DNA from: Mustelus asterias
Taxonomy: Eukaryota
DNA length: 64,000 nt
Direction: 5' to 3'
NCBI RefSeq assembly: GCF_964213995.1
Contig: NC_135804.1
Location: forward strand, 67,704,001 to 67,768,000
Shown here: positions 38,470 through 44,118 of the stretch, piece after piece
How positions within the stretch are numbered: the first letter of the stretch is position 1
Layout of the letters: every line of letters begins with the position of its first letter
Position numbers and translations under genes: made by a program
Notes under the pieces: generated by a model
What the model saw: only the letters and a program-made list of their open reading frames with translations
The model's database searches: none
What the model was told of the DNA's origin: nothing

Positions 38470-39130
38470 AAAATGCTGAGGAATTTAAATGCCCCATCCA
38501 CACAAATCCATTATGTACCATTGAGAGTCGAGTAAGTGTTGCCTCCGTTGAAAAAAAGTAAGAGATGTTGCAAGATTGGTCATTACTGGGTGGACCAAGC
38601 ACAGCCGGTGAGTTCAATCGACCGTGTAGTGACATTCATTTATGCCTATTTTGCTCCCGGGGTCTTCCATATTCTTAGCACCATATGTCTCTTTTGGCTT
38701 TGTTGTAGTTTGTTTCAAGACGAGACTAGGAGCTGTTTTTTCTCGGTTATATATAGATGCGTATTTCTTCATGTGACCTAACTTTCCTGCACAAGTCTCT
38801 CTGCTATGAACGTTCCTCCCTATCTCTCTGCTAGAGCATCCTGGCATTTCGTGTTCAGGAAACCTGGAATCCTGGGCTGTTTGGTCTGCCATTATTAACT
38901 CCGTGCAAAAAAAAGAAAATGATTGCAAATGTATTCCCCTGCCCCCACATGGATGGGCATATGTGTGCAAACCTAACACGTTGATTGTTTGGAAATTTTA
39001 GCAAATGTATGTGCCATTTGTAGTAAGTATTGGCATGTATTTCCCGAAGGGACCGTTGAACGGCCTTAGATGCTGGCCCTATCTGAGTCAGGATCAGTAC
39101 ATTTAGTAGTAAAAAGTTAGACGCACATGT
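38470..39130 (-). pseudogene. env: ERV-B env remnant (signal peptide and SU; TM not seen)
   Basis: FLLLNVLILTQIG...REIHANTY/LQMAHTFAKISKQSTC*VCTHMPIH (CWVC with TGG>TAG at 38967-38978) and NGT*WIC..GAFKFL near 38480-38525. Confidence 0.75.
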
Positions 39131-39544
39131 CTTCGTCTTGACCATCAATTACCGATCGACAGTTCCCACAGACTTCTTTTTTGAAAAAAATCCCAGCTGG
39201 AGGTAAATGTTTCATTTATTTACAGATTCACGTAACAACCACGTCACCCTCTATTGCATATTCGTTCCTTGGTTGCTCTTTGAGTTCTGTCTGCTGATTT
39301 CTGCTTCAATCTGTTGTAGATCCAGAAATCGTGGTGCACCGGTGAAATAGTTTAAATATCAAGAAATTGCCTTACGGTTTTAAGTTAGTTTCTTATCAAT
39401 TGAATTATTTCTACCTCCTCCCTTCTCATACCGTCCTGATTTCCTCATCCCATCATCTGGCCCAATCTAGTAGTTCGTCTACAAATACATATTATTGTTG
39501 TTATCATCATAGTCGTACAAAAGCCATCATAACGCCTTTAGGAT

Positions 39545-42345
39545 TAGTTATCCACTGGGGCAATTTCATTGCTACTGGATTGGGCATTAGGATATGGTTT
39601 CAGCTGCGTCCAGTGCCACCATTACAGACTGTATTTTCATTGAATAGGACACATGTTTGTCCTGTGACAACCACTTCATAGGGTCCCTTCCAACGAACCC
39701 CAGCCCTTTCTTGCCTGTCATGAATTTCACCATTGCTTATCCCATTGTGTGGGCAACTTAGTGGTACTTTTCTCTCCTATTTTCACCCAAGTAAGGAGAA
39801 TCCTAAGGCATTTTATACACGCGTTAGGAACAAGAAGGTTGTTAGGGAAAGAATCGGACCTCTCAGGGACAAAGGAGGGGAATTATGCTTAGAACCACAG
39901 GAAGTAGGTGCGATCCTAAATGAATACTTTGCATCAGTATTCACAAAGGAGAGGGACATGTTGACTGGTATTGTCTCAGAGAGATGTGTTGACCCGTTAG
40001 AAAAAATCTCAATTACAAGGGAGGAAGTGTTAGGTTTTTTAGGAAACATTAAGACAGACAAATCCCCAGGGCCAGAAGTCATCTATCCGAGACTCCTCAG
40101 GGAGGCAAGAGATGAAATTGCTGGGCCTCGAACAGAAATCTTTGTCTCTTCACTGGACACAGGTGAGGTGCCAGAGGATTGGAGGATAGCACATGTGGTC
40201 CCGTTATTTGAGAAGGGTAGCAAGGATAACCCTGGGAATTATAGGCCGGTGAGCTTGACGTCCGTGGTAGGGAAGTTGTTGGAGAAGATTCTTAGAGGTA
40301 GGATATATGCACATTTAGAACTGAATAATCTCATTAGCGATAGACAGCATGGTTTTGTATGAGGGAGGTCATGCCTCACAAATTTGGTTGAGTTTTTTGA
40401 GGAGGTGACAAAACCGATTGACGAGGGAAGGGCCGTGGATGTCGTCTATATGGATTTTAGTAAAGCCTTTGACAAGGTCCCTCATGGCAGACTGGTGCAA
40501 AAGGTAAAATCTCACGGGATCAAAGGTGAGCTAGCTCGATGGGTGGAGAACTGGCTTAGCCATAGAAGACAGAGGGTAGCAGTGGAGGGGTCTTTTTCCG
40601 GTTGGAGGTCTGTGACTAGTGGAGTTCCACAGGGCTCTGTACTGGGACCTCTGCTGCTTGTGATAGATATAAATGATTTGATGGAAGATGTAGCTGGTGT
40701 GATCAGCAAGTTTGCGGATGACACGAAGATTGCAGGAGTTGTGGATAGTGATGAACATTGTCAGAGAATACAGCAGGATATAGATAGGCTGGAACATTGG
40801 GCGGAGAAATGGCAGATGGAATTTAATCCAGATAAATGTGAAGTAATGCATTTCTGTAGAACTAATGTCAGGGGGAGCTATACAATAAATGACAGAACCA
40901 TCAGGAGTATAGACACACAGAGGGACCTGGGTGTACAAATCCGCAGATCCTGAAAGGTGGCAGCACAGGTGGAGAGGGTGATGAAGAAGACATATGGCAT
41001 GCTTGCCTTTATTGGTCAGGGCATAGAATATAAAAGTTGGCATGTGATGTTGCGGCTGTATAGAACGTTGGTTCGGCCACATTTGGAATACTGCGTCCAG
41101 TTCTTGTCGCCACACTACCAGAAGGACGTGGAGGCTTTGGAGAGAGTACAGAAAAGGTTTACCGGGATGTTGCCTGGTATGGTGGGTCTTCGGTATGAGG
41201 AGAGATTGGGTAAACTGAGGTTGTTCTCCCTGGAAAGACGGAGGATGAGGGGCGACCAAATAGAGGTGTATATCATTATGAAGGGCATAGATAGGGTGAA
41301 CAGTGAGAAGCTTTTTCCCAGGTCGGAGGTGACGAACACAAGGGGTCACAGGTTCAAGGTGAGGGGGGCAAGGTTCAACACAGATATCAGGGGGGCGTAT
41401 TTTACACAGAGGGCGGTGGGGGCTGGAATGCACTGCCAAGCAAGGTGATTGAGGCGGACAGGCTGGGATCGTTTAAGACTTACCAAGATAGCCACATGAA
41501 CAGGCTGGGAATAGCTGGATACAAACGAATGGTCTAGTTGGGCACATGAGCGGCGCAGGCTTAGAGGGCCGAAGGGCCTGTTCCTGTGCTGTACTGTTCT
41601 TTGTTCTTTGCTCAATCTCTATGCAGCTGCTGAGTGACAGAAGGCAGGCGGTCTAGTAAATCCCTCATATATTGAAATCCTGCTCCTCGGCTGATTTCCA
41701 GTTCTTATCCCCCTGTTATTGCCTCCTCTGCGAGGTGCATTGCGCTTCCAGTCATTTTTTCAAAAGAGGTTAATCCTGTTCCTCGAGCTCGAGTTGCTCT
41801 CTGCCGCACCCATACTGCAGGCAAATATTTCCCTTCCTGTAAAATAGTTTTAGCCAAACTATTCTTCAATGTGTGGTTCATTCGTTCTACCATTCCTGAA
41901 TTCCCGGGATGTTATGGTATATAAAACCTTTGTCTTACCCTGCCGTGTGTCAAACATCTCTCAGGACTCTTCCCATAAAGTGAGTTCAGAGTCTAATTGA
42001 AGAGGCGTATATTCGCCACCTAGATATTATTTCATTCACCAATATCAAAGCCACAGTTCTGGCTGTGGCATCTCTGCAGGGAAACGCGTCAAACCATCGG
42101 ATCAGCTGGTCTATAATTCCTAAACAATATGTTCTTCCTTTCACTTGGGCCAATGGTCCCGTAAAATCCATTTGACAGTTTTGCAAGGTCCTTTGGGCCG
42201 CGGCTGATTTCCCGTTGCAATACTTGAAGGGAGGCCTGTTCCCACCAGCTGTATGCATTACTAGCAGAATGTCGTTACGTCCTTTCCCATGCCTTTGCAC
42301 CACCTGCCCTCTTTGAGTAATTTGGCAATGTTATCTCTCCCTGTA
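39545..42345 (-). pseudogene. pol: ERV-B integrase remnant, split by a CR1 insertion (39792-41610)
   Basis: Zn-finger (TGRD...W.KGMGKDVTTFC**CIQ), core (PRPKGP...QMDFTGPL...IDQLIRWFDAFP...SGMVERMNHTLK), C-terminal WKGPYEV (39678-39692) and WWHWTQLKPY. Confidence 0.88.
39792..41610 (+). mobile_element. 5'-truncated CR1 LINE with stops, inserted in ERV-B integrase
   Basis: RT ORF pieces 39733-40362, 40384-40953, 40957-41448 and (TTCTTTG)n tail. Confidence 0.95.
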
Positions 42346-42369
42346 GAAGTTAGTGCACAGTAAACTTTC

Positions 42370-43040: not shown

Positions 43041-43395
43041 CCTTGTTGTTAGGCTTTTAGATCTGCTGTTCGCTGCATTCTAGGGGTCCCGTCCTGGTCT
43101 CCAACATTAAGCGCAACTAACGAATAACGCCTTTGTCCATCGCACGGCCTTTTACTCTGCTATTTAGGGCAGCTGCAAGAGGCCATCCTTGCCCCAAACA
43201 CCGCCCCCCCCACCCCCATTAAGGGCGATTTCTTTACGTACTGACATTGTTTTTGCAAACACTCACTCTTGCTCGGGTCTGTCAATTTACAGTTCCGACG
43301 GCATGACATGTGACTCCTCGAACTACTCGGGTGGTAAAAAAAATACTCACCCCCCTCTTAGGAGATGCGTCCTGCCGCCGGATTCTTGTGATTCT

Positions 43396-43413
43396 ACCGT
43401 GCTTGCAGCTTCA
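43396..43413 (-). promoter_or_regulatory. Degenerate PBS of ERV-B, possibly tRNA-Ser
   Basis: TGAAGCTGCAAGCACGGT matches 13/18 to the recalled tRNA-Ser PBS TGGCGCAGCGAGCAGGGT. It lies 4 nt after ...ACGACA and ~45 nt before the conserved donor. Confidence 0.45.
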
Positions 43414-43417
43414 AGGT

Positions 43418-44118
43418 TGTCGTGGAGATTTTTCAGAGACTAAGTATTACCAAAACTTCACCTAATACAAACAGTCGTGAAGTCATCATCCTGACTAAAC
43501 ACGCATCTTTATTTGACCAAGAATCGCGGGGAGAGACAACATTGGGCAGTCCAACACCTCTCTGGAGAGAAGGCCCTAAGCATTCCAGTACCACAACAGT
43601 CAGGCCAGTAGTAAACCTTCATGTTAACTTTTCCCACCTTTCCAATCAGTCATCCTTAGTACAAATCAATCACTGTTAACTATTGTCATTTACCTTATCA
43701 AATTACACTCTACCCTCTGACTTCATGGGATTTAATTGGTCCATTGAATCCGGGTGGTTTTTCCTCCTGTTGCTTACCAATCTCTGACACTCAGCTACAG
43801 AGTTCAAAATACTGTTCCCACCAACTCTCAATTACATCATAGTCGAGTCAGACAGTGACATTCCGATATCTGTGAAGCACTGCCTTGTCAGTAGAAATTG
43901 AATAGCTCAATTCATACTATGGCTTTGGGAAGCCATACTGCCCGTAACTTATGCTGAAAAACTGCACAAATTCTGTGATTCCAATATTCGAAAGAACATG
44001 GTTCGTCTTACTCATTCTTCGTCCCATCATGCCCTGGAGCAGCCTGCCTTTGGCTAAAATGTACAGATTACTTTAAAAGTACACCTTAAAATCCAAAATG
44101 TATTTTAAAATCAGAAAC
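43418..44118 (-). mobile_element. ERV-B probable 5' LTR (distal boundary uncertain)
   Basis: Ends ...CACGACA next to the PBS, AATAAA on minus near 43508-43513, tentative TGT start at 44118. Confidence 0.5.

Follow-up and report, generated by a model that had tools for sequence, protein, structure and literature searches.

A decayed retrovirus-like element on the minus strand of a 64,000-nt window from Mustelus asterias, all of which was analysed, raises the question of how an integrase with a D[FY]xGP-type core came to stand upstream of a gamma-type envelope gene, and to which retroviral lineage such a combination belongs. A first-pass annotation of the sequence had described the integrase as class III or loki-like and had proposed a lineage formed by env exchange. 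The analysis indicates with fair confidence that the element is a dead provirus of an old family, with a pol that falls outside the gamma/epsilon retroviruses and a gamma-type env that was likely swapped, within the same host group, with other pol lineages.

The window copy begins with a 5′ LTR (43418..44281, minus strand) that has an AATAAA at ~43512, ends in ...GACA and lacks its first ~20 nt. In paralogous proviruses the 5′ and the 3′ LTR alike match it at 72-73%, and it has at least 44 further genome matches at 74-83% (40 scored of 731 candidates). The adjacent primer binding site is decayed (43397..43414, minus strand), retaining 14 of the 18 bases at the 3′ end of the tRNA-Ser(TGA) encoded in this genome; in the paralogs, 15-17 of the 18 bases agree in five of six copies, and the sixth has an indel. 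The tRNA-Ser genes were found in the genome with a pattern allowing one mismatch, a first tRNA pattern having given no match there. The tRNA-Ser 3′ end also occurs in many spaced copies on contigs C85, C102, C103, C130, C141, C155 and C243, which suggests large tRNA gene arrays, the scan outside these contigs covering only five loci.

Downstream, a likely splice donor (GGTGAGT at ~43350, within 43343..43354, minus strand) is kept in those paralogs whose alignment extends that far, and it was presumably used as such. The frameshifted 5′ part of gag (42437..42900, minus strand) is colinear with the paralogs, has an N-terminus similar to that of the P0022 gag and contains a late-domain-type PPSY motif (42505-42494); PPSY or PPY is also found in the frames of two paralogs. 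At a deletion junction (42433..42436, ~42435, minus strand), ~4.1-4.4 kb are gone, comprising the rest of gag, PR, RT and RNase H; the missing piece measures 4089, ~4360 and 4135 nt in three paralogs. As a result, gag is fused directly to the integrase and RT is absent from the window copy.

The integrase N-terminal region and catalytic core (41635..42436, minus strand) contain QMDFTGPL (42174-42151) and VERMN (41890-41876), are broken by stops and frameshifts, and give a weak Pfam rve match. The zinc finger named in the annotation survives only in part, with its CxxC retained and both His gone. A 5′-truncated LINE with RT-like frames (39790..41620, plus strand) sits inside the integrase, at a site where the paralogs are uninterrupted, and beyond it the integrase C-terminal part (39589..39785, minus strand) runs from WKGPY (39692-39678) to WTQLKPYP. 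A stretch of ~440 nt (39150-39590), conserved among copies, leads from the integrase end to the env signal peptide. The env SU remnant (38489..39150, minus strand) includes a signal-peptide-like hydrophobic stretch (39127-39083), C*VC (38978-38967), which reads CWVC or CWIC in the paralogs, and NGT*WIC (38522-38502); homology stops at 38489, short of the furin site and TM. No TM, PPT or 3′ LTR is present in the whole 64,000-nt window, and the TM and 3′ LTR of four paralogs, compared with all of it, gave no true match.

Six-frame translation and the colinear paralogs place all of the motifs named by the annotation on the minus strand and in the order it gave; the parts inside its span of 38470..44118 are confirmed, although the boundaries move, with the LTR reaching 44281 and homology ending at 38489. 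All frames are interrupted by stops and frameshifts, and the window copy is a dead, internally deleted, 3′-truncated provirus that now codes for nothing. Its parts are not chance resemblances, since each is colinear at 65-83% nucleotide identity with other genome copies. Elsewhere in the window, a LINE RT frame (35173-36780, minus strand) is open over 535 residues and marks a young insertion. There is also a near-perfect inverted repeat (45484-45671, 88-nt arms, 99%), with related copies at 30264-30663, which we take to be similar to the end of a Penelope-like element.

The element is a member of an old multi-copy endogenous retrovirus family. The nearest named homologues are shark proteins, pointing to a cartilaginous fish as the likely host. 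Its integrase DNA has at least 40 other genome matches at 69-78% (40 scored of 293 candidates), and its env DNA has at least 41 (40 scored of 150 candidates). Twenty loci were selected by integrase, namely the 19 best matches and one more, and 20 kb were taken around each. The window-type env lies downstream of the integrase in 15 of these 20 copies; two other SU types that were tested occur in none of the 20, and the remaining five copies have no env among the three types tested. The same env therefore follows this pol in multiple copies, and the annotation's assignment of env and integrase to one element is upheld by their shared order. Moreover, the paralogs supply PR, RT, RNase H, TM, PPT and the 3′ LTR, so that the family shows the retroviral layout LTR-PBS-gag-pol-env-PPT-LTR. 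LTR pairs, found in 5 of 22 loci, differ by 0.09-0.23 (K2P), compared with the 0.024-0.033 given for the CmiERVs in PMC4422223, and the family is accordingly considered old.

The paralogs also define the envelope type. Their Env proteins carry CWVC or CWIC near the start of SU, a basic cleavage site, an ISD and CX6CC, match Pfam TLV_coat, and have syncytin-2 and syncytin-1 as first PDB matches. In gamma-type Env, SU is tied to TM via CXXC/CX6CC (PMC9967133). The SU CXXC is visible in the window as C*VC as well as in the paralogs, and the ISD and CX6CC are seen in the paralogs only; because TM is missing from the window, the gamma-type call depends on the TM of other copies. Judged by these sequence signatures, the family Env is gamma-type, as the annotation had read it. 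A protein search with the decayed SU/TM piece gave no match among 57 candidates.

Because the window holds no RT, the RT rows were drawn from single old-family paralogs, with X at breaks, and entered into three trees (72, 43 and 37 rows) without Loki, HERV-S, XtERV-S, alpha, beta or lenti rows and with P0087 as the only ERV-L-type proxy. The reference rows are IMG/VR records without names, and their classes are our own assumption from motifs and layout. One row, L071, is matched by name, its RT being the snakehead retrovirus RT row in the supplement of PMC7947760. The old copies, a young sister family of this genome and the three database proteins P0146/P0022/P0008 form one clade (100/98), and this clade falls outside that of class I(+delta) (100/99), likewise in a mixture quick tree; with delta omitted, the old family adjoins the class I stem (98/96). 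AU tests reject its union with gamma (p 4.6e-6), with epsilon (p 4.5e-6) and with all 11 class I rows (p 0.006), and they also reject its union with the P0188 group (p 0.010) and a wider Huo-like clade that includes it (p 0.017; clade name from PMC6001957). In the integrase tree, the window's own integrase falls within the old family (100/100), also outside class I. On these alignments, the old-family pol is placed outside gamma/epsilon, in agreement with what the annotation had supposed. A viral-contig scan with the decayed RT found no relative.

The pol receives no finer name from this analysis. Unions of the old family with snakehead retrovirus (p 0.18) and with foamy plus the ERV-L-type proxy (p 0.10) are not rejected by the AU test, and neither grouping appears in the best trees. 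The old-family paralogs have YVDD and two CCHC knuckles, and no dUTPase is on record for the sister pol P0001 or for P0009; the label class III in the ERV-L, XtERV-S or foamy sense, as the annotation had applied it, thus finds no support. Membership in Spumaretrovirinae is rejected on the CCHC knuckles, the gamma-type Env and an RT outside the 100/100 foamy clade; the nearest PDB matches of the pol are foamy RT and IN, which reflects sparse sampling. Further, D[FY]xGP is common to foamy, ERV-L-type and several basal fish lineages and, loosely, to gypsy outgroups, a spread so wide that the motif is probably ancestral and no class marker. It says 'not class I' and nothing finer.

The history of env was approached through 20 loci fetched from 151 env matches. 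Among them, close Env sequences occur on two other pol lineages, at L181, whose pol belongs to the P0010/P0014 clade, and at L175-L180, whose pol is class I. The L181 element (L181:1632-9545) is decayed and represents a third pol lineage, and its Env is the nearest to that of the window family. Old-family TM groups with the L181 Env and with env2 of L175-177 (97/94; 95/95 with mixture), and a single clade of the RTs of L181, L175-177 and the old family is rejected (p 1e-23). The median identity of old-family TM is 53% and 45% to these two lineages, 29% to its pol sister and 18% to gammaretroviruses, the outside Env references being IMG/VR gamma and delta records only. The TM/RT distance among the old family, L181 and L175-L180 is 0.35 and 0.50; in four other pairs it is 1.4-2.4, and for the pol sister family it is 1.8. 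In addition, old-family SU aligns with env2 at 32-61%, and the SU of the sister family does not align. Taken together, these comparisons make it likely that env was exchanged between pol lineages, in either direction, as the annotation had suggested; that part of its proposal is supported, but when TM of the old and sister families is forced into a single clade, the AU test does not reject it (p 0.126 and 0.188), in an alignment of 174 columns with long branches for which env similarity had guided the choice of 11 of the 15 old-family TM rows.

The observed TM/RT pattern is equally produced by an env replacement in the sister family, and the best surviving alternative, which we regard as unlikely, builds on this: a gamma-type Env would be ancestral for basal fish retroviruses and kept here, and the young sister would have replaced or rapidly changed its own. 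Besides the AU result (p 0.13-0.19), it draws on the argument in PMC9967133 that epsilon-related viruses descend from ancestors with a gamma-type Env and on CmiERV-I, another basal pol with the same Env type as read by eye from its supplement. However, it needs TM to have evolved 2-3x slower than RT across three lineages, when TM is 1.4-2.4x faster in other pairs; and a class I family has gained the same Env type as its second env, which shows that this Env does move.

Far less probable is a lokiretrovirus that acquired a gamma-type env. A D[FY]xGP-type integrase motif is indeed also found in Loki (QMDFIGPV, in one row of the PMC7947760 supplement), but near the zinc finger and the core the Loki integrase rows there are unlike the family's. 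Loki branches as the sister of all retroviruses, whereas the family RT nests among them (in a tree without Loki rows), and a supplement row lists Loki in none of three Chondrichthyes genomes. Moreover, the Loki Env is F-like, resembling the Mononegavirales F protein, and not of the TLV_coat type seen here (PMC7947760), so the annotation's term 'loki-like' is abandoned. The P0188/P0024/P0068 group was considered as a Loki candidate and dropped, since the Loki rows of that supplement differ from it; the p value of 0.010 is no Loki test. Finally, the possibility that integrase and env are two separate neighbouring insertions, brought up by the LINE between most of the integrase and env in the window, is refuted and keeps practically no weight, as the integrase C-terminus resumes past the LINE and runs into env, in the order shared by 15 of 20 paralogs.

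Under the preferred reading, a dead provirus of an old family with an exchanged env, the parent virus would have made an LTR-driven RNA primed on tRNA-Ser(TGA) and a Gag that bore a PPxY-type late motif along with two CCHC knuckles, the latter as seen in a paralog. Its Pol may have been made by stop read-through, a step suggested by the in-frame stop of the young sister, the only one of the two families in which such a stop was seen. Env would have come from a spliced RNA, with SU held on TM, by analogy, through the CXXC/CX6CC disulfide. The retention of env in 15 of 20 copies points to reinfection as the probable main route of spread. After insertion, the window copy would have lost ~4.2 kb, gained the LINE and lost its 3′ end.

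The young family that is sister to the window's by pol (L072-L091) has at least 53 matches, many open pol frames and LTR pairs that are 97-99% alike. It carries an in-frame gag-pol stop, and its env is without the SU CXXC and without the third Cys of CX6CC.

In the class I family at L175-L180, two TLV_coat genes follow pol in tandem ahead of the 3′ LTR, and env2 is related to the env of the window family. The two genes are adjacent in four of six loci, 9 kb apart in one, and in one env1 is mostly deleted; with L201-L212 included, env1 lies just 5′ of env2 in at least 16 loci, by comparison of match lists by eye. LTR pairs are 93-99.6% alike in four of the six loci; this family is younger than the window's, and its PBS is of the same tRNA-Ser(TGA) type. 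A literature search with crude terms found no earlier report of two-env proviruses. We tentatively suggest, as a possibility less favoured than the exchange itself, that three or more distant pol lineages in one genome draw on a mobile env pool, and that the class I two-env family, with its matching tRNA-Ser(TGA) PBS, preserves an exchange intermediate in which a second env was gained and the first then lost.

A non-class-I pol with a gamma-type Env is already in print, in fish and frogs (XtERV-S; Chen et al. 2021; the CmiERV-I sequence). CmiERV-I of the elephant shark (Han 2015, PMC4422223) resembles the present family as a cartilaginous-fish ERV with a non-class-I pol and a D-F-x-G-P integrase, and its Env, read by eye from the supplement sequence, is closely similar, with an N-terminal CXXC, an ISD and CX6CC. 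It differs in pol motifs like those of the P0188 group, a proxy that the AU test separates from the family (p 0.010), in the one CCHC knuckle seen in the available sequence, in its PBS sequence, and in an LTR divergence of 0.033 versus 0.09-0.23. Its pol clusters with snakehead retrovirus (PMC4422223), and a search of the CmiERV supplement text for three motifs found none of them. Snakehead retrovirus itself (L071) is, like the family, a basal fish retrovirus with YVDD, and it has an in-frame gag-pol stop; in contrast, its pol is 33% identical to P0001, and its 1134-residue env frame has neither a TLV_coat match nor CX6CC.

XtERV-S of Xenopus (Yedavalli et al. 2021, PMC8278194) shares the non-class-I pol, gamma-type TM, N-terminal SU CXXC and serine PBS. 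It differs in being ERV-L-like, with YIDD, a dUTPase after IN and no Cys-His box, whereas the family has YVDD and two CCHC knuckles. XtERV-S is described as class III, with a TM of the gamma type (PMC8278194); a review cites it as env acquisition (PMC10536682), and in zebrafish one element of class III is on record whose env is of class I type (PMC8672886). Chen et al. (bioRxiv 10.1101/2021.11.23.469661) report gamma-type Env in anamniotes, including six cartilaginous fish; the pols that carry it are epsilon-like, gamma-like or class III SnRV-related (e.g. ERV-SA.a-Ppe), and the pol/env incongruence is taken there as frequent recombination. These anamniote ERVs resemble the present family in the gamma-type Env, which they carry on several pol types, and the window family may be among their lineages.

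Overall, the window copy is an ordinary fossil. Its family is a further example of a basal pol paired with a gamma-type Env, and it illustrates that a class cannot be read from integrase motifs of the DFTGPL kind. The same Env sits on three distant pol backbones in one genome, one backbone carries a tandem env pair, and that two-env family has a derivative with most of its first env lost. If this history is true, the swapping of env among fish retroviruses, until now deduced from tree conflicts, could become traceable step by step.
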